From a virus, in the UHGV virus genome UHGV-1770993: a DNA stretch of 13,591 nucleotides; one strand, given 5' to 3'. The position numbers were made by a program, and so were the translations under genes. Of this stretch, positions 1 to 13,591 are shown piece after piece. The notes beneath the pieces were generated by a model. That model was not told the DNA's origin and did not search any database. It was given only the letters and a program-made list of their open reading frames with translations. Every line of letters begins with the position of its first letter. Within the stretch, counting starts at the first letter, position 1.

Positions 1-86
1 TGTGAGTCATATTCGCCCTGACTTTCCAGAACCATACGGACTGCCCGTTGACGGACTTCAGGGGAAAAACGAGTATTTTTAGTCAT
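1..86 (-). CDS. IS3-family transposase OrfA, N-terminal fragment (runs off the window)
   Basis: ATG at 86-84 on the minus strand; translation MTKNTRFSPEVRQRAVRMVLESQGEYDSQ matches my recollection of the IS629/IS1203 OrfA N-terminus. Confidence 0.75.
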   Translation of the reverse strand, partial: MTKNTRFSPEVRQRAVRMVLESQGEYDS

Positions 87-140
87 CCTGTTTACCTCTT
101 TCTCAGGAAGTTTAGTCTCCAGGATTCCCGGGGCGGTTCA
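1..140 (-). mobile_element. Left end of an IS3-family insertion sequence (IS629/IS1203-like), reading out of the window
   Basis: Terminal TGAACCGCCCCGGG inverted-repeat end at 140; bases 1-140 are the exact reverse complement of 13452-13591; encodes the OrfA N-terminus MTKNTRFSPEVRQRAVRMVLESQGEYDSQ on the minus strand. Confidence 0.8.
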
Positions 141-171
141 ACCCTTCTTCAGGGCTTAATTTTTAAGAGCG
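141..171 (-). promoter_or_regulatory. nutL: nutL-like N-utilisation site (boxA CGCTCTTA and boxB GCCCTGAAGAAGGGT), directly abutting the IS end
   Basis: Minus strand reads CGCTCTTAAAAATTAAGCCCTGAAGAAGGGT, matching lambda nutL boxA/boxB from memory; the last boxB base is T rather than C at the IS junction. Confidence 0.7.
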
Positions 172-214
172 TCACCTTCATGGTGGTCAGTGCGTCCTGC
201 TGATGGCCTAAAAT

Positions 215-300
215 ATACCTACAGGTAAAACAGCTGTCTATACCTGTAGGTAAATAAAATTGATGTAAGAGTTTACCTGCTTGAATTTTCAGGTAATTAA
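215..300 (-). promoter_or_regulatory. OL/PL-like operator-promoter region with repeated TACC-N4-GGTA repressor sites
   Basis: Palindromic TACCTACAGGTA at 216-227 and TACCTGTAGGTA at 241-252, plus a TTACCTG...CAGGTAA element at 273-297; same motif family as the sites between the repressor and cro. Confidence 0.6.
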
Positions 301-311
301 TTTTTTGGATT

Positions 312-339
312 GATATAAAAAAGCCCGCTTTGCGGGCTG
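312..339 (-). terminator. Rho-independent terminator ending the leftward repressor operon
   Basis: Minus strand reads AGCCCGCAAAGCGGGCTTTTTTATATCA: GC-rich 7-bp stem with 3-nt loop followed by a T-run, just after the stop of the 350-664 gene. Confidence 0.65.
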
Positions 340-349
340 AAAGGAGATG

Positions 350-664
350 TCAGAAGCTATTTGGATTGCTTGGCCATTGCGGCAATTTTGATTCTACTGG
401 GGTGTGTTTGGGTTTGAGTCCGTTTAAGTAGTCAAGACGCTCAATGGCGCATTTATACATAGCAATCTGCTCTGATGACATGTCGTCGTATGACATGCCT
501 TTGAACTTTTTAATTATCGATTCTGCCTCATGTATAAGATGCTTCTTCTTCATGAGTTCAGCTGTATGCTTAGAGCTTACAGGAGATAACTTTGCCCATA
601 TGAAGCAGATGATTACAACAGCGACTACTATGCCGGGTATAAACACTTGCTGCTTTATCCTCAA
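350..664 (-). CDS. Small membrane-anchored protein (104 aa) in the rexAB position downstream of the repressor; function unknown
   Basis: ORF with N-terminal hydrophobic segment VFIPGIVVAVVIICFIWAKL; TTG start overlaps the cI stop (TTGA) with AGGA about 12 nt upstream; followed by the terminator. Confidence 0.55.
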   Translation of the reverse strand: MRIKQQVFIPGIVVAVVIICFIWAKLSPVSSKHTAELMKKKHLIHEAESIIKKFKGMSYDDMSSEQIAMYKCAIERLDYLNGLKPKHTPVESKLPQWPSNPNSF

Positions 665-1347
665 ACTTTTGGCAGATCGTCCTGGTCTACGTACCTGGTG
701 TGTTTCACAATAGCTGAAACAAAATGCATTTTATCAACTTCTTCAACAGGAAGAGTGATTGGGCGGTGATCACTGTTTATGCTACTAAACTGATAATCAC
801 CGTCTCTTGTTTTGTTCATGATCTTTATCATGTTGTGACCGTCTTTGGTCCTTACAAAGACTTCATCACCTGGATGTACTGGCGTATTTGGTTCAATAAC
901 AACATATTCTCCTGACTGAATCCTTGGCCACATGCTGTCACCCTTAACCTTCAGACCGTAAGCATCTTTATCGCCGCTGTAGATGCTTAACCAACCGGAT
1001 CTGAATTCAATCATATCCACTGAGCCATCAACTCCCAAAACGGCTTCACCAATTACCGGAACAAAACCCGCACGAACGTTACCCGCAAACTCAAGATGGT
1101 CTGTAGCTCCAGCTTTACCATCTGCAAGCATGTCCATCCATCCGCGTGGGAGATTAAAAGATTTTTCAATTAGTTCCATCATATCGTCAGCAATGCGTTT
1201 TTTTCCGCTTTTTCCTTCCGGATACAGCATTCTGGAAACGTATGATGGTTCCCTTTCTATTCGACGAGCCAACTCTGAGGCCTTTCCATTACAGAATCGG
1301 TCTCTTATCTCTATCAGCCTTAGTCGTCTTTGTTCGTATTTATCCAT
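661..1347 (-). CDS. cI: cI-type prophage repressor, LexA-like (N-terminal HTH, C-terminal S24 peptidase autocleavage domain)
   Basis: 228-aa ORF divergent from cro; C-terminal GDSM serine motif and downstream lysine typical of S24/LexA-like repressors; flanked by operator arrays on both sides. Confidence 0.85.
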   Translation of the reverse strand: MDKYEQRRLRLIEIRDRFCNGKASELARRIEREPSYVSRMLYPEGKSGKKRIADDMMELIEKSFNLPRGWMDMLADGKAGATDHLEFAGNVRAGFVPVIGEAVLGVDGSVDMIEFRSGWLSIYSGDKDAYGLKVKGDSMWPRIQSGEYVVIEPNTPVHPGDEVFVRTKDGHNMIKIMNKTRDGDYQFSSINSDHRPITLPVEEVDKMHFVSAIVKHTRYVDQDDLPKV

Positions 1348-1364
1348 GATTTAATTCTATCTTT

Positions 1365-1425
1365 GATTACCTGCCGGTAAATAACCTATGGGTATTGATT
1401 TGCTTTTTACCTACAGGTAAACTCA
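1365..1425. promoter_or_regulatory. OR-like operator region with divergent PRM/PR promoters
   Basis: Three TACC-N4-GGTA sites: TTACCTGCCGGTAA 1366-1379, AACCTATGGGTA 1382-1393, TACCTACAGGTA 1408-1419, between the divergent repressor and cro starts. Confidence 0.7.
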
Positions 1426-1455
1426 TCTTATTCAACAACGGGAAGGAGATAGCAA

Positions 1456-1686
1456 ATGGAAGAACTCCGCTTGTATCTGAACTCCCTTTCACTGGAAGAG
1501 CAGAGAGAATTTGCCACCAAGTGCGGAACTTCTATCGGCTATTTGAGGAAAGCACTTAGCCGTAATCATGAATTGGGCGCAGCACTTTGTGTTCTGATTG
1601 AGAAGTTCAGCAATGGTGAAGTGACTCGCAAAGACCTTCATCCGGTTGATTGGGAAAGCATCTGGCCTGAATTAATGGCCGCTTAA
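1456..1686 (+). CDS. cro: Cro-like early regulator (76 aa, HTH)
   Basis: First gene rightward from OR; AGGAG ribosome-binding site at 1444-1448; small HTH-like protein. Confidence 0.7.
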   Translation: MEELRLYLNSLSLEEQREFATKCGTSIGYLRKALSRNHELGAALCVLIEKFSNGEVTRKDLHPVDWESIWPELMAA

Positions 1687-1694
1687 GTTATTAA

Positions 1695-1726
1695 CGCTCT
1701 TACACATCACCGCCCTGAAAAAGGGC
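1695..1726 (+). promoter_or_regulatory. nutR: nutR (boxA CGCTCTTA 1695-1702, boxB GCCCTGAAAAAGGGC 1712-1726)
   Basis: Matches lambda nutR boxA/boxB from memory; boxB is a perfect 5-bp stem hairpin; lies between cro and cII. Confidence 0.8.
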
Positions 1727-1802
1727 ATTACCAGAAACAAATCTCTATGGTTTTGCGTTTCTTTGCGAAGCCAACTCTATCTAATCATTAAGGAAATTAT
1801 CT

Positions 1803-2084
1803 ATGGGTACTATTGCAACTAAAAGCAAGAAAGCGGCTCGCATCGAGTCGGCCTTGCTGAACAAACTGGCACTGATGGGGCAGAAGACATTCGCTCGCGC
1901 GATGGGGGTTCCTGAATACCAGGTAAGCCGATGGAAGAATGGTTTCTTCTCGCAGGTAAGCATGATGCTGGCTGTTCTGGAATACGGAATCGAAGACGAT
2001 GAAATGGCTGAATTGACTAAGCGGCTTGCCGATTACCTGACAAAAGAAAAAGCCCCGAAGAACGGCGAATTCTTCGAGGCCTGA
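1803..2084 (+). CDS. cII: CII transcriptional activator homolog
   Basis: Translation ...[14 protein letters not shown]...SRWK...[17 protein letters not shown] closely resembles lambda CII ([14 protein letters not shown]...SRWK...SMLLAVLEWGVVDDDMA, from memory). Confidence 0.9.
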
Positions 2085-2119
2085 TTGTAGAAAGACTGGA
2101 TCAATCCACAGGAGTCATT

Positions 2120-2266
2120 ATGACAAAACAACTCAGTCCTTACCAGGACAAAATTCACAAACACATACTACGTGATCGCTTCCTGTCCAGCTTCAAGCAG
2201 CCTGGTCGATTCCGGGCTGAGTTGGAAAAAGTGAAGCTGATGCAGAAGGAGAAAGGTCATGAGTAA
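2120..2266 (+). CDS. Small basic protein (48 aa), hypothetical; not in the supplied ORF track
   Basis: ATG 2120 preceded by GGAG at 2111-2114; stop TAA 2264-2266 overlaps the O-like start (ATGAGTAA); [48 protein letters not shown]. Confidence 0.4.
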
Positions 2267-3119
2267 TCTTGCAACCGTAACACATTTAAGGCCTTCACAA
2301 CGGCCTGTGGAGCGTCGTGTGGCAGAAGTTGAAGATGGTTATACCCGTCTTGCAAATGCCCTGTATGAAGAGCTTATCGGCGCAGATTTAACGAAAAATC
2401 AGAGCAAGGTTGCCCACGCCATATGCCGTAAAACATACGGCTACGGTAAAAAGATGGATCGCATCTCTGATAGTCAGTTAGCTCAAATTACCAGGCTGCC
2501 AAGACAGAAGGTAAACAAGGCCAAGAATGAGCTTATCGCGATGAAGGTTATCCTTCGCGAAGGCCAGCAAATCGGGCCTAACAAGAACATCGAGGAATGG
2601 CAAATCGAAGGGTGTCACTACTCTGGTGATAATGTCACTGCATTGGTGACAAAAAGTGTCACCAAAACGGTGACAGCGCTGTCACCAAAACAGGGACACA
2701 CAAAAGAAACTATTACAAAAGAAAAAAGAAATAATAAAAACACTATGTCCGAAAGTGTTCGGACGGAGTGTGAAAAATCACCTGACCGTCACGAAGAAAC
2801 CGACAAGGCATTCGAGGAAATATTCTGGTGTGCAGGCATGCGGAAGGCCGGGAAGAAAAACGCAGCTTCGGCATTCAGAACACAGTTCAGGGAATGGCGT
2901 AAAACTACCAGGGGTACGGCAAGCGAGTTTGCCACGATGCTGGCAGAAGACATCGCATGCAGGAATGGTAAGCAGTTCGGATTCGACAGGTTGTTACCAT
3001 CGAGCTACCTGAACGGTCAGCGCTGGAACGACGAGAAGCCAGAAACTATTCAACCACAATCCAAACCATCATCCGCAATCACCGTATCGAAAACTGGCTA
3101 CGTGTTTTTCGACAGGTGA
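2259..3119 (+). CDS. O: Replication initiator, lambda O-like (N-terminal iteron-binding domain)
   Basis: N-terminal region (...[13 protein letters not shown]...[41 protein letters not shown]...GPNKNIEEW) resembles lambda O from memory; contains internal iterons and an AT-rich tract like ori-lambda. Confidence 0.85.
2620..2745 (+). repeat. Putative replication origin inside the O-like gene: iterons followed by an AT-rich tract
   Basis: Repeated GTGACA/TGTCAC palindromic units (TGTCACTGCATTGGTGACA, GTGTCACCAAAACGGTGACA, GCTGTCACCAAAAC) at about 2627-2691, then the A-rich stretch AAAAGAAACTATTACAAAAGAAAAAAGAAATAATAAAAAC. Confidence 0.65.
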
Positions 3120-3226
3120 ACCATGAAATCAAAAATCAAATCGCTACTGGTCGCTGGTTATAACCACGGCTGGTTAAGTATTTCGTTTGTCGATTTCTGG
3201 TTTAAAAATCTCAATCTGAGGGAATC

Positions 3227-5107
3227 ATGACGCCAAGTGAACTCAGTGACCTGCTTTGGGCGCAGGTTGACAGGGTGGCTCCGCACCTGTTGCCAAACGG
3301 CAAGAAAGAGGGGCATGAGTGGGTTGCCGGTAACGTCAACGGTGACAAGGGAAACAGCCTTAAGGTCAACCTTAGCGGCAAGAAAAAATGGGCTGATTTC
3401 GCTGAGGGAGACGGCGGTGACATGCTTGATTTGTGGATGGCATGTCGTGGAATTAACCTGCATCAGGCTATGCAGGAAGCGAAAGCCTTTCTCGGAATCA
3501 AGGATGACGATCACCATTTCGATGCCAAACGTGAGAAGAAATTCTCCAGACCTGACCGCAAGAAAATCGCCCGCTACGTTACCAGAACAGAATCCCATCT
3601 TGAGTACCTGCAATCGCGTGGCATATCGCCAGAAGTCGTAAAGCGCTACGAGGTTGTCAGCGGCAAGGTGTGGAATGGAGAACGAGAACTTGATGCACTG
3701 GTGCTTCCGTACAAACGCGATGGTGAGTTGTTGCAGGTCAAGCGAATCAGCACTGAGCGACCGGACGGGAAGAAAGTCATTATGGCAGAAGGTGATTGCG
3801 AACCTTGTCTGTTTGGATGGCAGGCTCTGGACGCTGGCGTGAGGGCGGTTGTACTTTGCGAAGGCGAAATTGATTGTATGAGCTATGCGCAATATGGCAT
3901 CTCGGCGTTATCCGTGCCGTTTGGTGGCGGGAAAGGCGCTAAACAGCAGTGGATTGAGTTTGAGTATCACAACCTCGACAGGTTTGAGGAAATATTCATC
4001 TCGATGGACGTTGATGATGTTGGTCGTGAAGCCGCAAGGGAAATCGCAAGCCGACTCGGTGAACATCGTTGCCGTCTTGTTACTCTGCCGTACAAAGACA
4101 TCAACGAATGCCTGATGAACGGTGTTACCGAGGATGAAATCTGGCAGTACATCGGCACGGCATCCTACTTCGATCCTGAAGAACTCTACAGCGCGCGAGA
4201 GTTTTACCAGGACACTATCAACGCTTTCTACGGCAAGCAGCAGTATCTGTTTAATCCACCGTGGGAATCTCTGGCAGATAAATTCCAGTTCCGTGAGGCA
4301 GAGTTGACGCTGGTCAATGGTGTGAACGGTCACGGAAAAACGGAGGTTGTCGGGCATATGGCACTTGAGGCAATGCGTCAGGGTGTGAAGACGTGCATCG
4401 CGTCACTTGAGCTGAAGCCAGGCATTCTCCTTAAGCGACTTACCCGTCAGGCGACGTGCTGCAAGATGCCGCCAGTGCTGGAAATTGACTCTGCATTTAA
4501 ATTTTATGACGAAAGACTTTGGGTGTTTGGCCTGACCGGAACGGCGAAAGCCGACAGGCTGATCGAAATATTCGACTACGCTCGCCGCCGATACGGGATC
4601 CAGTTATTCATCATCGACAGCCTGATGAAATGTGGCATAGGCGACGATGACTATAACGGGCAGAAGGCGTTTGTTGACTCGATTTGCGACTTCAAAAACA
4701 AAACAAACTCCCACGTCATTCTCGTTACTCACTCGCGAAAAGGAGACAGCGAAGAAAAACCAACCGGGAAAATGGACGTAAAAGGCTCTGGAGCGATAAC
4801 AGACCTGACAGACAACCTTTTCATCATCTGGCGTAACAAGGCTCGCGAGAGAGCGTTACAGAGAGTTCAGAGTGGTGAAAAGATGTCAGAGAAGGACGAA
4901 CAGCTACTGGCATCTCCGGCATCTGTTTTGATGCTTGAAAAACAACGTAACGGCGAAGGTTGGGAAGGTGGTGTCCCGTTGTTCCTTGACGAGCAATCGC
5001 ACCAGTTCCTGCAACTTGAATCAGGATCGCCATATAGCTACATCGCCAATATGCCGAAATCGGAATATGACGAGGCGTGGCGACAGGAAAACGTGACGGA
5101 GTATTAA
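3227..5107 (+). CDS. Replicative primase-helicase (Toprim domain fused to a DnaB/RecA-fold SF4 helicase domain)
   Basis: 626-aa ORF; Toprim-like CEGEID and DVDD motifs; Walker A GVNGHGKTE and Walker B LFIIDSLMK in the C-terminal half; occupies the position of lambda P. Confidence 0.8.
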   Translation: MTPSELSDLLWAQVDRVAPHLLPNGKKEGHEWVAGNVNGDKGNSLKVNLSGKKKWADFAEGDGGDMLDLWMACRGINLHQAMQEAKAFLGIKDDDHHFDAKREKKFSRPDRKKIARYVTRTESHLEYLQSRGISPEVVKRYEVVSGKVWNGERELDALVLPYKRDGELLQVKRISTERPDGKKVIMAEGDCEPCLFGWQALDAGVRAVVLCEGEIDCMSYAQYGISALSVPFGGGKGAKQQWIEFEYHNLDRFEEIFISMDVDDVGREAAREIASRLGEHRCRLVTLPYKDINECLMNGVTEDEIWQYIGTASYFDPEELYSAREFYQDTINAFYGKQQYLFNPPWESLADKFQFREAELTLVNGVNGHGKTEVVGHMALEAMRQGVKTCIASLELKPGILLKRLTRQATCCKMPPVLEIDSAFKFYDERLWVFGLTGTAKADRLIEIFDYARRRYGIQLFIIDSLMKCGIGDDDYNGQKAFVDSICDFKNKTNSHVILVTHSRKGDSEEKPTGKMDVKGSGAITDLTDNLFIIWRNKARERALQRVQSGEKMSEKDEQLLASPASVLMLEKQRNGEGWEGGVPLFLDEQSHQFLQLESGSPYSYIANMPKSEYDEAWRQENVTEY

Positions 5108-5191
5108 ATGACCATCTACATCAGTGAGCTTGTAACAGGCCTGCTGGTAATCGCAGGCCTTTTTATTTGGGGGAGAGTAAATCGTGGCTGA
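5108..5191 (+). CDS. Possible 27-aa hydrophobic micropeptide (MTIYISELVTGLLVIAGLFIWGRVNRG)
   Basis: ATG directly abuts the helicase stop (TAAATG); its stop overlaps the GTG start of the next gene; single hydrophobic stretch; too short to be sure. Confidence 0.25.
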   Translation: MTIYISELVTGLLVIAGLFIWGRVNRG

Positions 5192-5390
5192 GTTAATTTT
5201 CTCTGCATTGAGGATTCTCGGTGCTATGTGGATGGTGTCGACGTTCATTGTGGTTGTCGGAAGTTTTGTCCGGTTGGTAGGCGAAGGTAAAGACCTGGTG
5301 GGTGTGCTTTTCGGTAGCATTTTCCTGTGGGTGATTATCGGTGTTATGCCTGTTGTCGTTGCAAAAGTGGCGTGGCGTTTTGTGAGTTGA
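5184..5390 (+). CDS. Small membrane protein with two predicted transmembrane segments (68 aa)
   Basis: GTG start with GGGAGAG ribosome-binding site at 5171-5177; hydrophobic MWMVSTFIVVVGSFV and VLFGSIFLWVIIGVMPVVVA. Confidence 0.5.
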   Translation: MAELIFSALRILGAMWMVSTFIVVVGSFVRLVGEGKDLVGVLFGSIFLWVIIGVMPVVVAKVAWRFVS

Positions 5391-5407
5391 ACTGAGGGTA
5401 AGTACCG

Positions 5408-5764
5408 ATGGACGAATCAAGAAAGAAGTTTGAGGAATACGTTGCCAAAAAATTGAGATTACCATTCGAGATGATAACCGAGGCAAGAAATGGTGATAGG
5501 TACTTCGCATTTTCAAGCATGGATATTCGTCACTCCTTAAATGAGTGGTGGACTTTATGGCAGGCATCGCGAGCAGCTATTGAACTGGATATCGACTGGC
5601 CAGAATCGAATGACGACTTTTGGAAAGATGGTGAAGAAGGTGCTTATGCGATGGGTTATGAGGATGGGCGTGACAAAACGGTAATTGCAGTAATGAAAGC
5701 TATCAGAGCCGCTGGAATTAAAGAGAAGAATTTCGATGAAGCAAACAATATTCCTCCGAACTAA
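5408..5764 (+). CDS. Hypothetical acidic protein (118 aa) in the ren/nin position
   Basis: ORF with GAGGG upstream of the ATG; 29-nt overlap with the ninB start; no family recognised. Confidence 0.55.
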   Translation: MDESRKKFEEYVAKKLRLPFEMITEARNGDRYFAFSSMDIRHSLNEWWTLWQASRAAIELDIDWPESNDDFWKDGEEGAYAMGYEDGRDKTVIAVMKAIRAAGIKEKNFDEANNIPPN

Positions 5765-6146
5765 GCAACAACAGCAAGCCGCAATCAACGCCATCCTCGC
5801 AACACCACTCGATAAAGACAAGCCAGTCACCATCCGCATTACTGACTACAAGCGCAACCTTGACCAGAACGCAAAATTTCACGCGATGCTGGCGGATATC
5901 GCTCGTCAGGTTCAATGGTGCGATAAATGGCTAAAACCAGAACAATGGAAGGTTTTGTTGATCAGCGGTCATGCAGTGGCAACATAACAGGAAGCTGATG
6001 TTTTGCCCGGGCTTGAAGGCGAATACGTCAACATTCGCGAAAGTAGCGCGCAGATGAGTGTGAAGCGTATGGCAAGTCTGATTGAGTACACGACAGCATG
6101 GGCTATTGGTCAGGGTGTCAGATTTACCGACAGGAGGTACGAATGA
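5736..6146 (+). pseudogene. ninB: ninB (Orf-family recombination mediator) interrupted by an in-frame TAA at 5985-5987
   Basis: N-terminal 83 aa resemble lambda NinB (...LDQN.KF.A.L.D..RQV.W...WL); homology continues in the same frame after the TAA ([34 protein letters not shown]...) to the stop at 6144-6146. Confidence 0.7.
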
Positions 6147-6325
6147 GACGACAGCGACGAAGCATCACCGACATCATCTGCGAAAACTGCAAATACCTTC
6201 CAACGAAACGCTCCAGAAATAAACGTAAGCCAATCCCAAAAGAATCTGACGTAAAAACCTTCAATTACACAGCTCACCTGTGGGATATCCGGTGGCTTAG
6301 AGAACGTGCGAGGAAAACAAGGTGA
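6143..6325 (+). CDS. ninE: NinE-like small protein (60 aa)
   Basis: ATG 6143 with GGAGG ribosome-binding site at 6134-6138; [60 protein letters not shown] matches my recollection of lambda NinE. Confidence 0.65.
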
Positions 6326-6492
6326 TTGACCCAAATCGAAGTTACGAACAAGAAAGCGTCGAGCGGGCTTTAACGTGCGCTAACTGCGGTCAGAAGCTGC
6401 ATGTGCTGGAAGTTCACATGTGTGAGCACTGCTGCGCAGAACTGATGAGCGATCCGAATAGCTCAATGTACGAGGAAGAAGACGATGAGTGA
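6322..6492 (+). CDS. ninF: NinF-like small cysteine-rich protein (56 aa); not in the supplied ORF track
   Basis: GTG start overlapping the ninE stop; [56 protein letters not shown] is nearly identical to lambda NinF as I remember it. Confidence 0.65.
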
Positions 6493-6754
6493 TTTCTCTG
6501 AGCTTATTTCCTTCAAAAAAGACAGAGAAGAAATGCGGACTGAATCTGTCTATTACGTTCAACACCGGAATAAACGCTCGGTGCTTGATCAGGAGTTGGT
6601 TATTACCGGAGACCTGGCATTCAGAACATATAAGGCCAGCATGGAAATGAAGGATTTCCCTAAATGTGGTTCTGAAAGAGAAGCCGCGTTAAAGCTGGCT
6701 GAGTGGATGCAGAGAATGGCTGCTGCAATTGAGAATTACTGGAGCGAACCATAA
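6485..6754 (+). CDS. Hypothetical protein (89 aa) in the nin region
   Basis: ORF translationally coupled to its neighbours (start overlaps the ninF stop; its stop overlaps the next start); no family recognised. Confidence 0.5.
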   Translation: MSDFSELISFKKDREEMRTESVYYVQHRNKRSVLDQELVITGDLAFRTYKASMEMKDFPKCGSEREAALKLAEWMQRMAAAIENYWSEP

Positions 6755-7044
6755 TGGCTAACCTACGCAAAGAAGCACGCGGCAGAGAATGCTAGGTACG
6801 TATTTACGGCATATGCAATGGCAATCCTGAAACTACAGTTCTGGCACATTACCGGATGGCTGGAATTTGCGGAACTGGAATGAAGCCTGACGACCTGATC
6901 GGCGCATGGGCTTGTAGTGACTGCCACGCGGAGATCGACCGACGCACCCGGATTCTCGACAACAAAGACGCCAGACTTTACCACCTCGAAGGCGTGATCA
7001 GGACGCAGGCGATACTGCTGAGGGAGGGGAAGATTAAGCCATGA
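6754..7044 (+). pseudogene. ybcO: ybcO-like (DUF1364) gene with an in-frame amber codon at codon 14 (TAG 6793-6795)
   Basis: Reading through the TAG gives MANLRKEARGREC*VRIYGICNGNPETTVLAHYRMAGICGTG...CSDCHAEIDRRT..., collinear with DLP12 YbcO (MADLRKAARGRECQVRIPGVCNGNPETSVLAH..., from memory), where the stop aligns to a Gln. Confidence 0.7.
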
Positions 7045-7403
7045 ACGAATATCAGTTTGTGCTTCCATACCCGCCGTCGGTGAATACCTACTGGCGAAGA
7101 CGGGGAAGCCAATACTACATCAGCGATAAAGGCCAGAAATACCGAAAAGACGTTCAGCAAATCATCCGCCAACTTAAGTTAGACATTTTCACCAAATCAC
7201 GACTCCGCATCAAAGTCATCGTAGACGTTCCGGACTCCCGCCGTCGCGACCTCGACAACATCCTGAAAGGTTTACTCGACTCCCTTATCCACGCCGGATT
7301 TGCGGAAGACGACGAGCAATTCGATGACATTCGCGTAATTCGTGGCGTGAAAGTACCAGGCGGAAGGCTTGGAATAAAAATCACCGAACTGGAGAACGCA
7401 TGA
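7041..7403 (+). CDS. rusA: RusA Holliday-junction resolvase
   Basis: 120-aa ORF with the RusA-like motif PDSRRRDLDNILKGLLDSL and C-terminal GGRLGIKITE; ATGA overlaps with both neighbours. Confidence 0.85.
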   Translation: MNEYQFVLPYPPSVNTYWRRRGSQYYISDKGQKYRKDVQQIIRQLKLDIFTKSRLRIKVIVDVPDSRRRDLDNILKGLLDSLIHAGFAEDDEQFDDIRVIRGVKVPGGRLGIKITELENA

Positions 7404-7588
7404 ACGCCACAATTCAAACGATACCAGAGCTTCTTATCCAGACACGAGGCAATCAGACCGAAGTGGCAAGGATGCTTTCCTGCGCAAGAGGAACAGTGCT
7501 CAAGTACAACCGAGACAGCAAAGGCGAGCGTCACGTAATAGTTAACGGCGTCCTGATGGTCAAACAGGGCAAAAGGGGAAGGCCATGA
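7400..7588 (+). CDS. ninH: NinH-like protein (62 aa)
   Basis: ...TIPELLIQTRGNQTEVARMLSCARGTVLKYNRDSKGERHVIVNGVLMV resembles lambda NinH (...TIPDMLVEAYGNQTEVARRLKCSRGTVRKY..., from memory); its stop overlaps the Q start. Confidence 0.7.
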   Translation: MNATIQTIPELLIQTRGNQTEVARMLSCARGTVLKYNRDSKGERHVIVNGVLMVKQGKRGRP

Positions 7589-8208
7589 GACTCGAAAGCG
7601 CAGCTAAATTTCATTCGCCAAAAAGCCCGATGATGAGCGACTCACCACGGGCTACGGCTTCTGACTCTCTTTCCGGTACTGATGTGATGGCTGCTATGGG
7701 GATGGCGCAATCACAAGCCGGATTCGGAATGGCTGCATTCTGTGGTAAGCACGAACTCAGCCAGAACGACAAACAAAAGGCTATCAACTATCTGATGCAA
7801 TTTGCACACAAGGTATCGGGGAAATACCGTGGCGTTGCAAAGCTTGAAGGAAATACTAAGGCAAAGGTACTGCAAGTGCTCGCAACATTCGCTTATGCGG
7901 ATTATTGCCGTAGTGCCGCGACGCCGGGCGCAAGATGCAGAGATTGCCACGGTACAGGCCGTGCGGTTGATATAGCCAAAACAGAGCAGTGGGGGAGAGT
8001 TGTTGAGAAAGAGTGCGGAAGATGCAAAGGTGTCGGCTATTCAAGAATGCCAGCAAGCGCCGCATATCGCGCTGTAACGATGCTAATCCCAAACCTTACT
8101 CAACCCACCTGGTCACGCACTGTTAAGCCGCTGTATGACGCTCTGGTGGTGCAATGCCACAAAGAAGAGTCAATCGCAGACAACATTTTGAATGCGGTCA
8201 CACGTTAA
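7585..8208 (+). CDS. Q: Late-gene antiterminator Q, lambda type
   Basis: 207-aa translation (MRLESAAKFHSPKSPMMSDSPRATASDSLSG...CRDCHGTGRAVD...) is essentially identical to lambda Q as I remember it; followed by PR'/qut. Confidence 0.92.
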   Translation: MRLESAAKFHSPKSPMMSDSPRATASDSLSGTDVMAAMGMAQSQAGFGMAAFCGKHELSQNDKQKAINYLMQFAHKVSGKYRGVAKLEGNTKAKVLQVLATFAYADYCRSAATPGARCRDCHGTGRAVDIAKTEQWGRVVEKECGRCKGVGYSRMPASAAYRAVTMLIPNLTQPTWSRTVKPLYDALVVQCHKEESIADNILNAVTR

Positions 8209-8250
8209 CAGCATGATTGCCACGGATGGCAACATATTAACGGCATAATA

Positions 8251-8290
8251 TTGACTTTTTGAATAAAGTTGGGTAAATTTGACCCAACGA
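8251..8290 (+). promoter_or_regulatory. Late promoter PR' with overlapping qut site
   Basis: -35 TTGACT at 8251-8256, 17-bp spacer, -10 TAAATT at 8274-8279; the sequence is near-identical to the lambda PR' region from memory. Confidence 0.8.
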
Positions 8291-8480
8291 TGGGTTAATT
8301 CGCTCGTTGTGGTAGTGAGATGAAAAGAGGCGGCGCTTACTACCGATTCCGCCTAGTTGGTCACTTCGACGTATCGTCTGGAACTCCAACCATCGCAGGC
8401 TGAGAGGTCTGCAAAATGCAATCCCGAAACAGTTCGCAGGTAATAGTTAGAGCCTGCACAACGGTTTCGGGATTTTTTAT
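8286..8480 (+). ncRNA. 6S-like PR' leader RNA ending at the tR' intrinsic terminator (hairpin 8422-8471 plus T-run 8473-8479)
   Basis: Region matches the lambda 6S RNA/tR' sequence from memory; CCCGAAAC...GGTTTCGGG stem followed by TTTTTTAT. Confidence 0.7.
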
Positions 8481-8482
8481 TT

Positions 8483-8557
8483 GGGTCAGTCGTATAAAGG
8501 TCATTACGGAAGGCTGTTAACCTTCTTATCGTGGTTCGAGTCCACGCTGTCCCGCCA
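8483..8557 (+). tRNA. tRNA-like gene, anticodon GTT (Asn) by manual folding
   Basis: Cloverleaf by eye: acceptor GGGTCAG/CTGTCCC (6 of 7 pairs), anticodon stem GAAGG/CCTTC with loop CTGTTAA, T-arm CGTGG-TTCGAGT-CCACG, discriminator G and encoded CCA; the D-arm is irregular. Confidence 0.45.
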
Positions 8558-8562
8558 AATAT

Positions 8563-8638
8563 GCTGGTTTAGCTCCAATGGTAGAGCGGTCGCCTTGTAA
8601 GCGAATGGGTAGCGGTTCAAGTCCGTTAACCAGCACCA
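8563..8638 (+). tRNA. tRNA gene, anticodon TGT (Thr) by manual folding, 76 nt with encoded CCA
   Basis: Acceptor GCTGGTT/AACCAGC (7 pairs), D-arm GCTC-CAATGGTA-GAGC, anticodon loop CTTGTAA, T-arm AGCGG-TTCAAGT-CCGTT, discriminator A, CCA. Confidence 0.65.
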
Positions 8639-8880
8639 TAACTGAGCCGTAGCCACTGGCTATCCTGAACTCATCAGTGATAGTTACGCTGCGGCCTTCT
8701 ACACATGACCTTCGTGAAAGCGGGTGGCAAGAGGCTGCGCTAACAACCTCCTGCCGTTTTGCCCGTGCATATCGGTCACGAACAAATCTGATTACTAAAC
8801 ACAGTAGCCTGGATTTGTTCTATCAGTAATAGACCTTATTCCTAATTAAATAGAGCAAATCCCCTTATTGGGGGTAAGAC

Positions 8881-9204
8881 ATGAAGATGCCAGAAAAACA
8901 TGACCTGTTAGCCGCCATTCTCGCGGCAAAGGAACAAGGCATCGGGGCAATCCTTGCGTTTGCAATGGCGTACCTTCGCGGCAGATATAATGGCGGTGCG
9001 TTTACAAAAACAGTAATCGACGCAACGATGTGCGCCATTATCGCCTGGTTCATTCGTGACCTTCTCGACTTCGCCGGACTAAGTAGCAATCTCGCTTATA
9101 TAACGAGCGTGTTCATCGGCTACATCGGTACTGACTCGATTGGTTCGCTTATCAAACGCTTCGCTGCTAAAAAAGCCGGAGTAGAAGATGGTGGAAATCA
9201 ATAA
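8881..9204 (+). CDS. S: Holin/antiholin S (class I holin, dual-start motif MKM)
   Basis: 107-aa translation [41 protein letters not shown]... matches lambda S from memory; dual start codons Met1/Met3 are present. Confidence 0.92.
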
Positions 9205-9664
9205 TCAACGTAAGGCGTTCCTCGATATGCTGGCGTGGTCAGAAGGAACAGATAACGGACGGCAGAAAACCAGAAATCACGGTTATGACGTCATTGTAGG
9301 CGGAGAGCTATTCACTGATTACTCCGATCACCCTCGCAAACTTGTCACGCTAAACCCCAAACTCAAATCAACAGCAGCCGGACGTTACCAGCTTCTTTCC
9401 CGTTGGTGGGATGCCTATCGTAAGCAGCTTGGCCTGAAAGACTTCTCTCCCAAAAGCCAGGACGCTGTTGCGCTGCAGCAGATTAAGGAACGTGGCGCTT
9501 TGCCGATGATTGATCGCGGTGATATCCGTCAGGCTATCGACCGTTGCAGCAACATCTGGGCTTCACTGCCGGGGGCTGGTTATGGTCAGTTCGAGCATAA
9601 GGCTGACAGCCTGATTGCAAAATTCAAAGAGGCTGGCGGAACGGTCAGAGAGATTGAGGTATGA
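9188..9664 (+). CDS. R: Endolysin R (lytic transglycosylase)
   Basis: 158-aa translation [42 protein letters not shown]... is near-identical to lambda R from memory. Confidence 0.92.
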
Positions 9665-10128
9665 GCAGAGTCACCGCGATTATCTCTGCTCTGGTTATCT
9701 GCATCATCGTCTGCCTGTCATGGGCTGTTAATCATTACCGTGATAACGCCATCGCCTACAAAGAACAGCGTGATAAAAAAGTCAGTGAGCTGAAGCAGGC
9801 GGCCGCCACCATTACTGACATGCAGCGACGCCAGCGTGCTGCTGATGCACTCGATGCTAAATACACGAAGGAGTTAGCTGATGCGAAAGCTGAAAATGAT
9901 GCTCTTCGGCGCAAGCTTGATAATGGTGGCAGGGTGCTCGTCAAAGGAAAATGCCCTGTGCCATCCTCAGCCGAAACCTCCGGCGCCTCCGGCATGGGCA
10001 ATGATGCCACCGTCGAACTCTCTCCAGTTGCTGGACGAAACGTTCTCGGTGTCCGGGACGGAATTATCCGCGACCAAACAGCACTGAGAACGCTTCAGGA
10101 ATACATCAGGACGCAATGCCTTCGATGA
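9661..10128 (+). CDS. Rz: Inner-membrane spanin Rz
   Basis: N-terminal [31 protein letters not shown] is identical to lambda Rz from memory; the C-terminal half is diverged but still coiled-coil-like. Confidence 0.85.
9881..10087 (+). CDS. Rz1: Outer-membrane lipoprotein spanin Rz1, embedded in the +1 frame of Rz
   Basis: [21 protein letters not shown]... has a signal peptide with lipobox VAGC and a proline-rich [11 protein letters not shown] segment like lambda Rz1. Confidence 0.75.
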
Positions 10129-10303
10129 TAGCGATAATTTTACTCATCATCCTTCACATCTGGCTCTGTAGACAGGGTGATGATCACTTCTGGAGTGAAT
10201 CCAGATTAAACATCTCATTGCTGATGCTTGATATTGAGCATCTTGCGCGCAGTAAGGGGCTGCGTTGAGATAAGAGCCAGTTCATTACAAATACCAGGAT
10301 TTA

Positions 10304-10328
10304 GCCTCGCATTCGCGGGGCTTTTTAT
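10304..10328 (+). terminator. Rho-independent terminator downstream of the lysis cassette
   Basis: GCCTCGC-ATTC-GCGGGGC hairpin followed by TTTTTAT. Confidence 0.6.
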
Positions 10329-10470
10329 ATCTGAATTTCACAGCGCATCTCACGCGCATATTAACGAGAGCCTTTCAGTAAGCGAGCCTGAGAAATGCCG
10401 TTATAGGTGGCGACCTCTCTCGGGCGGCTTTTCTGTGAGACAGGCTCACTTTCTAAAAGGTAAAGACGCT

Positions 10471-10995
10471 ATGAATAATCATTCAGTTATTCCAGCCTTC
10501 GACTTCCGAGAAATGGTGCAAGCCAAAAACGGAGAGGTCGTTACCACATCCAGAAAAATTGCCAAGTACTTCGGCAAGCGACACGGTGATGTTCTCAGGA
10601 AAATCGAGCAGGTTAAGGCTGATTGCTCGCGTGAGTTTAGCCAACGCAATTTTGCGTCGGCTGATTATATCGATGAGCAGGGCAAGGTTCGCCCGATGTA
10701 CAGCCTGACGAAAGATGGCTGGATCATGGTTGTGATGGGGTTCACCGGGAAAGCTGCTGCGGCAATCAAGGAGAGCTATATCGCAGCATTCAACTGGATG
10801 GCAGAGCAACTGAGCCGCCGCATGGCAATTGGCGAAGAAATGCAGCACCGCTACGCCATCAAAGAAACACGCTCAAAGCTGAAAGGTACGATCGGCAGTC
10901 GGTTAATGAACGAACGGAAGAAAGAGAAGCGTGTCCTGGCTGTCGAGCATGAATACATCTTGCAGGTGACACAGCCTGAACTGCTGATTAATTGA
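10471..10995 (+). CDS. rha: Rha-family phage regulatory protein
   Basis: From ATG 10471: MNNHSVIPAFDFREMVQAKNGEVVTTSRKIAKYFGKRHGDVLRKIEQ... fits the Rha N-terminal domain pattern; the upstream in-frame extension to 10228 spans a terminator hairpin and was rejected. Confidence 0.7.
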   Translation: MNNHSVIPAFDFREMVQAKNGEVVTTSRKIAKYFGKRHGDVLRKIEQVKADCSREFSQRNFASADYIDEQGKVRPMYSLTKDGWIMVVMGFTGKAAAAIKESYIAAFNWMAEQLSRRMAIGEEMQHRYAIKETRSKLKGTIGSRLMNERKKEKRVLAVEHEYILQVTQPELLIN

Positions 10996-11295
10996 AGATG
11001 TCATTACAAAGCCTATCTACGGGTGGGCTTGATAATGAAACCGGAGTTAATTTCTGGTCACTAATTAACGGCAGTACAGCGAAACAACCCAAGCCAGTAA
11101 GTGGGGAAATAACACTGGCAGCCACTGAAAGATGAACCTCCTGCCTTATGGCAAAAAAGATTCTTTGTGGTGGCGGACTGATGGAAAGACATCGGTTATT
11201 GCAGAGACCATTCAATGAGTGGTCTCGACAATGGCTTATACCCTACACGGGATAACTTAACTGATATCCCTTTTAACGGATAAACGGAGCCAACA

Positions 11296-11538
11296 ATGGC
11301 AGAGATTATTCCCATGACTGAAGAACAGAAATTCCAGTTAGAGATTTACAAGCTGGTCATGAACCAGAACGCAGCCGCAGAAGAAGCATTTCAATTCATC
11401 GGCACTGACGAGTTGAAGCTTGAGCTATTCAAAATTCACTTCCAGTCAGGCGGCGCTAATTCAGATATCACTACCCGCACTATCGAAGCGGTGCGTAAAT
11501 CGAAGGAAGCGTTATACCTGTTCACCACCGGAGCATAA
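11296..11538 (+). CDS. Hypothetical protein (80 aa) immediately upstream of the terminase genes
   Basis: ORF with GGAG upstream (11283-11286); stop 3 nt before the terS start; no family recognised. Confidence 0.5.
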   Translation: MAEIIPMTEEQKFQLEIYKLVMNQNAAAEEAFQFIGTDELKLELFKIHFQSGGANSDITTRTIEAVRKSKEALYLFTTGA

Positions 11539-11540
11539 AC

Positions 11541-11981
11541 ATGGCGCGCCCAACAAAGTATCAAGAGGCGTATGCCGAACAGGCACGCAAACTGTGCTTG
11601 CTGGGCTACACCGATGCAGAGCTTGCTGATTTCTTCGAAGTCAGTGAGTCAACTATTAACAAGTGGAAGCTTGATTATCCTGAGTTTTCGGAGTCCATAA
11701 AAAAGGGTAAGGCCGTCGCTGATGCAGAAGTTAGTGACCGTCTTTATCAACGCGCTATGGGCTTCGTGGCTCCAGACATCGATATTCGTGTTATTGAAAA
11801 CAGAATTGTCGAAACTCCGCTTGAGAAGTATTACCCGCCTGATACAACTGCCGCCATCTTCTGGCTTAAGAACCGACAGAAGGATAAATGGCGCGACAAG
11901 GTTGATCACGAGCTAACAGGCAAAGACGGCGGCGCAATTCAGATTGAAACATCACCGATGAGCACTCTGTTCGGAAAATGA
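11541..11981 (+). CDS. terS: Terminase small subunit (HTH-containing)
   Basis: 146-aa ORF immediately upstream of and overlapping (ATGA) the large-terminase gene; N-terminal HTH-like segment LGYTDAELADFFEVSESTINKWK. Confidence 0.75.
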   Translation: MARPTKYQEAYAEQARKLCLLGYTDAELADFFEVSESTINKWKLDYPEFSESIKKGKAVADAEVSDRLYQRAMGFVAPDIDIRVIENRIVETPLEKYYPPDTTAAIFWLKNRQKDKWRDKVDHELTGKDGGAIQIETSPMSTLFGK

Positions 11982-13393
11982 CCTCGATTAATCCTATCTT
12001 TGAACCGTTCATTGAGGCGCATCGCTACAAAGTCGCCAAAGGCGGTCGAGGTAGCGGTAAATCATGGGCAATTGCGAGGCTGCTTGTTGAAGCGGCGCGT
12101 CGTCAGCCAGTGCGTATTCTTTGCGCTCGTGAACTGCAAAACAGTATCAGCGATTCGGTAATCCGGCTGCTTGAAGACACCATCGAGCGTGAAGGATATT
12201 CGGCTGAGTTTGAAATTCAGCGTTCAATGATTCGTCATCTCGGAACGAATGCTGAATTCATGTTCTACGGCATCAAAAACAACCCGACGAAGATTAAATC
12301 GCTCGAAGGTATTGATATCTGCTGGGTGGAAGAAGCGGAAGCGGTAACGAAGGAATCATGGGATATCCTGATACCAACCATCCGTAAGCCGTTCTCTGAA
12401 ATATGGGTGAGCTTTAACCCGAAGAACATACTCGACGATACCTATCAGCGATTCGTCGTAAATCCTCCTGATGATATTTGCCTGTTGACGGTGAACTACA
12501 CCGACAACCCGCACTTTCCTGAAGTTCTCCGTCTGGAGATGGAAGAGTGTAAACGCAGAAATCCGACACTGTATCGTCACATCTGGCTTGGTGAGCCAGT
12601 GAGCGCAAGTGATATGGCAATTATCAAACGTGAATGGCTTGAAGCCGCAACCGATGCGCACAAGAAACTCGGATGGAAAGCGAAAGGCGCTGTTGTCTCT
12701 GCGCATGACCCATCAGATACAGGGCCAGATGCTAAAGGTTATGCATCGCGTCACGGTTCGGTAGTTAAGCGCATTGCCGAAGGTCTGCTGATGGACATCA
12801 ACGAGGGTGCTGACTGGGCTACTTCGCTGGCGATTGAAGACGGCGCTGACCATTACCTGTGGGATGGTGATGGTGTTGGTGCCGGGCTACGCAGACAGAC
12901 AACGGAAGCGTTTTCCGGCAAGAAAATCACCGCCACGATGTTCAAGGGCAGCGAATCGCCATTCGATGAAGATGCACCGTATCAAGCCGGAGCATGGGCT
13001 GATGAAGTCGTACAGGGTGACAACGTTCGCACTATTGGCGATGTGTTCCGCAATAAGCGAGCACAATTCTATTACGCGCTGGCTGACAGGCTGTATCTGA
13101 CATATCGGGCGGTTGTCTACGGTGAGTATGCAGACCCCGACGACATGCTGAGCTTCGACAAAGAAGCGATAGGCGAGAAGATGCTGGAGAAGCTGTTTGC
13201 AGAATTGACGCAGATTCAGCGCAAATTCAATAACAACGGGAAGCTGGAGCTAATGACTAAGGTCGAAATGAAGCAGAAGCTCGGTATTCCATCTCCTAAC
13301 CTGGCTGATGCGCTGATGATGTGTATGCATTGCCCGGAGTCGGCTGCGCAACCCGACTATTCCAGTTACTCAATTCCTTGTGGTGTAGGTTGA
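11978..13393 (+). CDS. terL: Terminase large subunit, PBSX-family (pac-type) ATPase/nuclease
   Basis: 471-aa ORF with Walker A KGGRGSGKSWA, Walker B-like ICWVEEAEA, and C-terminal acidic nuclease-like residues. Confidence 0.88.
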   Translation: MTSINPIFEPFIEAHRYKVAKGGRGSGKSWAIARLLVEAARRQPVRILCARELQNSISDSVIRLLEDTIEREGYSAEFEIQRSMIRHLGTNAEFMFYGIKNNPTKIKSLEGIDICWVEEAEAVTKESWDILIPTIRKPFSEIWVSFNPKNILDDTYQRFVVNPPDDICLLTVNYTDNPHFPEVLRLEMEECKRRNPTLYRHIWLGEPVSASDMAIIKREWLEAATDAHKKLGWKAKGAVVSAHDPSDTGPDAKGYASRHGSVVKRIAEGLLMDINEGADWATSLAIEDGADHYLWDGDGVGAGLRRQTTEAFSGKKITATMFKGSESPFDEDAPYQAGAWADEVVQGDNVRTIGDVFRNKRAQFYYALADRLYLTYRAVVYGEYADPDDMLSFDKEAIGEKMLEKLFAELTQIQRKFNNNGKLELMTKVEMKQKLGIPSPNLADALMMCMHCPESAAQPDYSSYSIPCGVG

Positions 13394-13395
13394 TA

Positions 13396-13451
13396 TGGCA
13401 GAAAAAAAGATGACTGACTGGCATCGCAAGGTGCTGTGCAACTTTGATAAT
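13396..13451 (+). pseudogene. First 18 codons of the gene after terL (presumably portal), truncated by IS insertion
   Basis: ATG 13396 three nt after the terL stop, MAEKKMTDWHRKVLCNFDN, then the IS end begins at 13452. Confidence 0.35.
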
Positions 13452-13591
13452 TGAACCGCCCCGGGAATCCTGGAGACTAAACTTCCTGAGAAAGAGGTAA
13501 ACAGGATGACTAAAAATACTCGTTTTTCCCCTGAAGTCCGTCAACGGGCAGTCCGTATGGTTCTGGAAAGTCAGGGCGAATATGACTCACA
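13452..13591 (+). mobile_element. Left end of an IS3-family insertion sequence (IS629/IS1203-like), reading out of the window
   Basis: TGAACCGCCCCGGGAATCCTGGAGACTAAAC... terminal repeat; exact reverse complement of 1-140; OrfA start at 13506. Confidence 0.8.
13506..13591 (+). CDS. IS3-family transposase OrfA, N-terminal fragment (runs off the window)
   Basis: GGT/AGG ribosome-binding site then ATG 13506; MTKNTRFSPEVRQRAVRMVLESQGEYDSQ. Confidence 0.75.
   Translation, partial: MTKNTRFSPEVRQRAVRMVLESQGEYDS

Follow-up and report, generated by a model that had tools for sequence, protein, structure and literature searches.

A rare inherited ochre allele of ninB in a lambdoid prophage of Escherichia coli

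The ninB gene of a lambdoid prophage carried by E. coli runs into an ochre codon well before its natural stop, inside a stretch of conserved homology. This raises the question of whether the codon is genuine and, if so, whether the interrupted gene reflects ordinary loss of function, a bypassed or tolerated stop, or an inactivation favoured by selection. We addressed this question for one stretch of DNA of 13,591 nucleotides, analysed here as a whole and referred to as the window. The ninB (= orf) product is a RecFOR-like recombination mediator, of a family expected to bind ssDNA and SSB and to stand in for RecFOR. The window represents part of an E. coli lambdoid prophage whose packaging module is of the P22 type; its gene order and principal features are collected in Table 1. 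Stx phages carry tRNA genes at the same place as the two tRNA genes of the window.

Table 1. Features of the window, with coordinates counted from its first nucleotide
Feature	Coordinates	Strand	Description or basis
IS629 left end (IRL + orfA start), facing inward	1..140	-	reverse complement of 13452-13591
Probable oL/pL	212..254	-	two operator palindromes (TACCTACAGGTA-like) and a leftward sigma-70-like promoter
Prophage gene order, early part			S24-peptidase repressor, cro-like, cII, replication protein O, toprim primase-helicase
Prophage gene order, nin part			ninB, ninE, ninF, DUF1364/ybcO-like, rusA, ninH, Q
Prophage gene order, late part			tRNA-Asn, tRNA-Thr, holin, lysozyme, Rz, Rha, large terminase, portal start
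Truncated ninB/orf frame	5736..5987	+	83 codons and premature TAA; ORF list, translation, Pfam NinB
Ochre TAA, from AAA (Lys84) by A>T at 5985	5985..5987	+	comparison with intact prophages
3' part of ninB, now untranslated	5988..6146	+	52 codons and natural TGA; beta3-beta4 hairpin, helix 4, C-terminal tail
ninE	6143..6325	+	sequence, translation; NinE family protein in identical prophages
DUF1364/ybcO-like gene	6754..7044	+	amber TAG 6793-6795 (Q14*); C>T at the second C of CCAGG
tRNA-Asn(GTT) and tRNA-Thr(TGT)	8483-8557 and 8563-8638		between Q and the holin gene
Second IS629 left end, inverted relative to the first	13452..13591	+	inserted after codon 19 of the portal gene (ATG 13395)

The interrupted reading frame and its intact relatives

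Translation of positions 5736-6146 bore out every coordinate that an earlier note on this DNA had given for ninB. The frame opens at the ATG at 5736, meets the TAA at 5985-5987 in frame and continues past it to the natural TGA at 6144-6146; the "about 52" further codons of that note are exactly 52. The homology on the far side of the stop is likewise real and far above chance, since each half of the frame matches the Pfam NinB profile (PF05772) separately. Read through the stop, the protein spans all 131 profile positions with a score of 180.6 bits (cut-off 23.8); taken singly, the N-terminal half covers positions 1-83 (E 1.2e-30) and the half beyond the stop covers positions 85-131 (E 1.7e-16). 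Immediately upstream, a phiTE_015 family gene overlaps the ninB start by 29 nt under either of its two start calls, the metagenome annotation giving it 118 aa (5408-5764) and RefSeq 81 aa (corresponding to 5519-5764).

Comparison with the structure of lambda Orf (1PC6_A) gave an E value of 6.6e-21 for the read-through protein, with residues 2-133 aligned to residues 3-130. In this alignment the lysine of codon 84 corresponds to Lys81 of lambda Orf/NinB, followed by Gln82 (PDB 1PC6), in agreement with the Lys/Gln position that had been proposed for the stop. Across the homologue alignment this position holds Lys in nearly all enterobacterial members and Asn in some Pasteurellaceae. The window also encodes R40, Q44, N45, K47 and H49, which are equivalent to the lambda Orf channel residues R41, Q45, N46, K48 and W50, whose roles are taken from PMC4118853; R40, Q44, N45 and H49 are invariant in the homologue alignment.

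An uninterrupted frame of about 133-149 codons is expected for the NinB fold, full-length homologues being 133-149 aa long, and the window gene fails to provide it, with TAA at codon 84 and a product of 83 of 136 aa. A naturally short form of NinB was considered and rejected: the homologue entries of 80-120 aa are fragments labelled partial or N-terminally truncated.

Among complete E. coli genomes, 17 have this same prophage, most of them from human extraintestinal or gut isolates. Sixteen of these show only 1-4 mismatches over window positions 141-13451, and the remaining one (HH97) is 98.7% identical. Codon 84 of ninB is AAA throughout the 17 genomes, and AAA was read in 5/5 complete-genome copies that were fetched (PA45B, GN02100, SCU-123, UPEC129 and AH20I049). 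A base-by-base comparison of the window with E. coli PA45B over 141-13146 gave two differences and zero indels, namely T versus A at 5985 (TAA versus AAA, Lys) and T versus C at 6793 (TAG versus CAG, Gln). The interruption is thus a point nonsense change, AAA to TAA by a single A>T, and not a frameshift, as the earlier note had proposed. Both comparisons which that note had suggested point the same way: alignment of intact ninB homologues gives Lys (AAA) as the ancestral codon, and the same prophage in related strains has AAA where the window has TAA. With an intact orthologue at the same locus, near-identical relatives and a single base making the stop, the window ninB is a pseudogene of the NinB family and not a functional member of it.

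Authenticity and prevalence of the ochre allele

The comparisons above presuppose that the T at position 5985 is real. The window is an ENA metagenome contig (ERZ27234353:k141_588) assembled with MEGAHIT, and in such a contig a TAA could arise by sequencing or assembly error, or as the consensus artefact of a strain mixture, with ninB really intact. The rarity of the allele would fit such an origin. The 31-mer carrying the TAA and centred on the T, for which a hit requires 28 consecutive identical bases that include the T, had no match in 5,426 complete E. coli genomes, and exact-pattern scans found the TAA allele neither in GTDB species representatives nor in JGI metagenome contigs. The corresponding AAA 31-mer was found at 218 places in 214 complete E. 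coli genomes, with TAA at 0/218 of these ninB sites. However, the same T occurs in three further, separately assembled contigs (ERZ1743281 NODE_164, here L004; ERZ857894 NODE_577, here L005; and Logan SRR3132450_572, here L006), which come from other accessions and assemblers and differ from the window elsewhere; the four contigs could in principle stem from related samples. Moreover, the window contig is known from 3 samples, and the sequence context (GCAACAAAACAGG) is no error-prone homopolymer indel site, the change being a substitution. The objection of a base-call error, raised in the earlier note as a possible refutation, is thereby answered as far as assembled sequences allow, and we regard an artefactual TAA as extremely improbable.

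The TAA contigs, between which 1-3 further sites vary, also carry a record of descent. A SNP in the toprim gene, T437P (window 4535, Thr>Pro), is common to L004 and L005 and marks a sub-branch of the ochre lineage, and L004 has two further SNPs in the holin gene. Because L004 and L005 share the extra SNP and L004 has two more, the ochre allele, judged from these contigs, is inherited and diversifying. It is a rare allele, vertically inherited in a rare sublineage.

Exact look-up of the 83-aa product returned "36 blocks", a figure that we rejected as a measure of allele prevalence: the six NCBI contigs listed (L007-L012) are wild-type and cut by the contig end. These draft assemblies, of which there are six or more, end at the base equivalent to window position 5986 (...ACAAA), and the partial ninB product of their last 251 nt equals the truncated protein by accident. 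Their common end suggests a fork in the assembly graph, where ninB copies diverge in genomes with multiple prophages. More generally, exact-sequence look-ups of truncated products can return counts swollen by genes that are merely cut at contig ends.

Predicted consequences for NinB and for ninE

An AlphaFold2 model of the intact protein (monomer; pLDDT 76, medium confidence) places helices at residues 10-22, 41-58, 68-82 and 109-125 and strands at 89-91 and 97-99. In this model the stop falls directly past helix 3, and the lost part consists of the beta3-beta4 hairpin and helix 4; the 83-aa product retains the RAGNYA part and the helix-2 channel residues. Most invariant residues of the NinB family in the homologue alignment fall in the lost segment, where P91, G92, E94-E96, V98-S103, A105, M107, V109, R111, M112 and L115 are invariant or nearly so. 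In lambda Orf, the alpha3-beta3-beta4 region contributes to the dimer interface, the R103E substitution abolishes DNA binding, and V106E, at a residue thought to stabilise the packing of helix 2 against helix 4, leads to impaired binding and aggregation (PMC4118853). Because the conserved beta-hairpin and helix 4, which serve the dimer interface and DNA binding in lambda Orf, are lost, the K84* allele is very probably null.

Function could nonetheless persist if the stop were bypassed or compensated, through ochre suppression, read-through, or re-initiation at the TTG at 6003 with reassembly of a split protein. This TTG is in frame and has AGGAAG upstream at 5989-5994 (AGGA 10 nt upstream), an ORF of 6003-6146 exists, and the codons past the stop are still the same as in the intact allele. 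That downstream identity, however, is accounted for by a recent mutation, the carriers of TAA being only 0-3 SNPs apart in 13 kb, and a break at this point costs residues 84-89 and separates helix 3 from the hairpin of the dimer interface. A phage-borne suppressor tRNA was rejected: the two tRNAs of the window, Asn(GTT) and Thr(TGT), have ordinary anticodons and are no suppressors. Likewise, an Rfam search of the window gave no recoding RNA element and nothing beyond these two tRNAs. UAA is also an efficient terminator in E. coli. We attach next to no credence to bypass or compensation, and K84* remains best read as a probable null allele.

Effects beyond ninB itself are also conceivable. The ATG of ninE overlaps the natural ninB stop (ATGA, 6143-6146) and has GGAGG upstream; this overlap suggests that translation of the two genes would be coupled. 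With ninB translation now ending 158 nt short of this overlap, the coupling to ninE may be weakened.

Prophage decay, selection and known systems

The earlier note had paired the ochre with an amber codon in the DUF1364/ybcO-like gene about 800 bp further on. This amber is real and lies 808 bp downstream of the ninB stop (translation MANLRKEARGREC*VRIYGIC...). The codon at 6793 is CAG in PA45B and UPEC129, and its context changes from GCCAGGT in PA45B to GCTAGGT in the window, that is, CCAGG>CTAGG at a Dcm site with a methylated C. An ancestral CCWGG with C>T at the second C identifies position 6793 as a Dcm hotspot. Amber hotspots at Dcm (CCWGG) sites in lacI were reportedly described by Coulondre et al. 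in 1978, and the DUF1364 amber shows the same chemistry, CAG to TAG by CCAGG>CTAGG, whereas the ninB ochre is an A>T transversion without hotspot context. The amber hotspot by 5-methylcytosine deamination was first described in lacI (PMC12606429).

The 31-mer with the TAG was found in 17 complete genomes, and that with the CAG at 747 places in 678 genomes. In 10/17 of the TAG genomes the prophage is the same, with the other genes of the 13.3-kb stretch all intact; the remaining TAG genomes represent at least two other lambdoid backgrounds, including the phage-like plasmid pSM107_MCR and the FORC_042 prophage. Three DUF1364 alleles that have diverged and are preceded by different genes carry TAG, a pattern in which recurrent mutation and spread by recombination are indistinguishable. 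The segment has 21 Dcm sites, and 8 possible deaminations would give a stop, the other seven of them in cI, cII, DUF2740, the primase-helicase, Q, holin and lysozyme genes. Because most of the other seven genes are needed by a viable phage, the DUF1364 amber may be the most easily tolerated of the eight. PGAP annotates DUF1364 as an 80-aa protein from an ATT at 6802, with the first conserved Cys dropped; this start call is an annotation choice and not evidence of function, and the proper label for the gene is amber-interrupted, not rescued from the ATT. The two stops thus differ in origin, a private transversion in ninB versus a Dcm deamination hotspot in DUF1364.

The prophage is also interrupted by IS629. 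Of each copy the window contains just the initial 140 nt; for the right-hand one, 140/140 nt agree with records annotated "IS3 family IS629", and window positions 1-140 have no match in the intact prophage. As 140 nt is k-1 of the k141 assembly, the contig ends where the IS repeat begins. The 13.3-kb segment is bracketed by two IS629 copies, either through two insertions or through an IS-mediated inversion or deletion. Neither the left nor the right IS629-prophage junction is present in any of the complete E. coli genomes, and the TAA contigs L004-L006 stop short of the junctions. The left junction (140/141) lies 198 nt upstream of the N start codon, as placed in intact relatives, and about 65 nt downstream of the probable pL.

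The control region on this side is found between the IS629 junction and the repressor gene. A palindromic motif of 12-14 nt (TACCTACAGGTA-like) occurs in four copies, two to the left of the repressor gene (216-229 and 241-254) and two between the repressor and cro (1368-1381 and 1408-1421). A promoter-like TAGACA-17-TATATT on the minus strand (240>212), with 10/12 positions matched, overlaps the left palindrome pair. Going by motif and position, the palindromes are probably the oL and oR operators, and the leftward site is probably pL.

The alleles at the two interrupted codons are nested, from CAG/AAA (PA45B, UPEC129) through TAG/AAA (GN02100, SCU-123 and others) to TAG/TAA (window, L004 and L006); L005 ends at window position 6273, short of the amber site. 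This nesting and the IS629 copies on both sides support the suggestion of the earlier note that the nin region is decaying. That suggestion needs qualifying in one respect, the amber being no private companion of the ochre but a change found in 17 complete genomes at a Dcm hotspot. Decay is at a very early stage, because beyond the two bases the nin region is the same as in intact relatives.

Whether drift alone produced these stops can be judged from the variation among close relatives. The window and eight relatives have 10 variable sites, comprising 2 nonsense, 4 non-synonymous, 3 synonymous and 1 intergenic change, a spectrum that is roughly that of unselected mutation. It could still be argued that inactivation of ninB and DUF1364 was positively selected in the host lineage, silencing recombination and nuclease functions of the prophage. 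A random substitution in the segment has a 3.0-3.6% chance of being nonsense, and the sole difference from the nearest relatives is one; both PA45B differences create stops, an outcome with a probability of about 0.001 for independent, unselected changes, and nonsense makes up 2/10 of the variable sites in the prophage family. The ochre as the only difference from the nearest relatives is mildly unusual and leaves some room for selection. Nevertheless, ascertainment bias is strong, as the window was flagged for its stops, a Dcm hotspot accounts for the amber, which is also found in other backgrounds, and the remaining SNPs look neutral. The allele is also very rare among the ninB sites of complete genomes, and by established lambda biology a prophage-borne null in a repressed pR operon would have no obvious phenotype. 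Given the ascertainment bias, the Dcm hotspot and the neutral-looking polymorphisms, we consider positive selection for the two inactivations quite improbable.

We find it highly likely, instead, that the ochre is a real, inherited A>T nonsense mutation reflecting the ordinary pseudogenisation of a dispensable ninB. A single A>T turned Lys84 (AAA) into an ochre codon in a lambdoid prophage, and translation ends after 83 of 136 residues, directly past helix 3. Loss of the hairpin and helix 4, which in lambda Orf provide part of the dimer interface, packing on helix 2 and DNA-binding residues, would leave a null allele. The nin genes lie in the pR operon; because this region is repressed in the lysogen and dispensable for lambda lytic growth, the mutation is probably effectively neutral, and the ochre marks the early pseudogenisation of a prophage also interrupted by IS629. 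Lambda can form plaques without its nin genes (PMC10695390). A broader pair of exceptions, that the ochre is selected as loss of the mediator benefits a domesticating host lineage, or tolerated through an active 83-aa fragment, possibly together with a re-initiated C-terminal fragment, appears very unlikely.

Ordinary pseudogenisation of this sort is an event of a kind already known, a nonsense pseudogene of a well-known family in an early-decaying lambdoid prophage. Its importance is mainly one of annotation, in that the window ninB should be labelled a pseudogene (K84*). Beyond this, the locus illustrates neatly, on a small scale, how prophage decay begins, with point nonsense in the nin region and IS629, and all else unchanged relative to relatives.

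Three known systems place the allele in context. The first comprises the prophages with the intact allele WP_000814611.1 ("recombination protein NinB"; PA45B, GN02100, SCU-123, UPEC129 and others), which is the same as the window at 410/411 nt and whose 13.3-kb neighbourhood differs by just 1-4 SNPs; they differ from the window in having AAA (Lys) at codon 84 and no IS629 at either junction. Lambda Orf (NinB; 1PC6, PF05772) belongs to the same family, sits at the corresponding position of the nin region, with the replication genes on one side and Q on the other, and shares its channel residues with the window NinB, whereas the window allele stops at codon 84 (lambda K81), after 83 of 136 residues; the long C-terminal helix 5 of lambda Orf is absent from the window NinB subfamily. 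Finally, cryptic or defective lambdoid prophages of E. coli, DLP12 and Rac among them, accumulate IS insertions and pseudogenes, and the window resembles them in carrying nonsense codons in dispensable nin genes and IS copies in the early-left operon and a head gene. In contrast to such prophages, decay in the window is at a much earlier stage, and all other genes of its 13.3-kb segment are the same as in apparently intact relatives.
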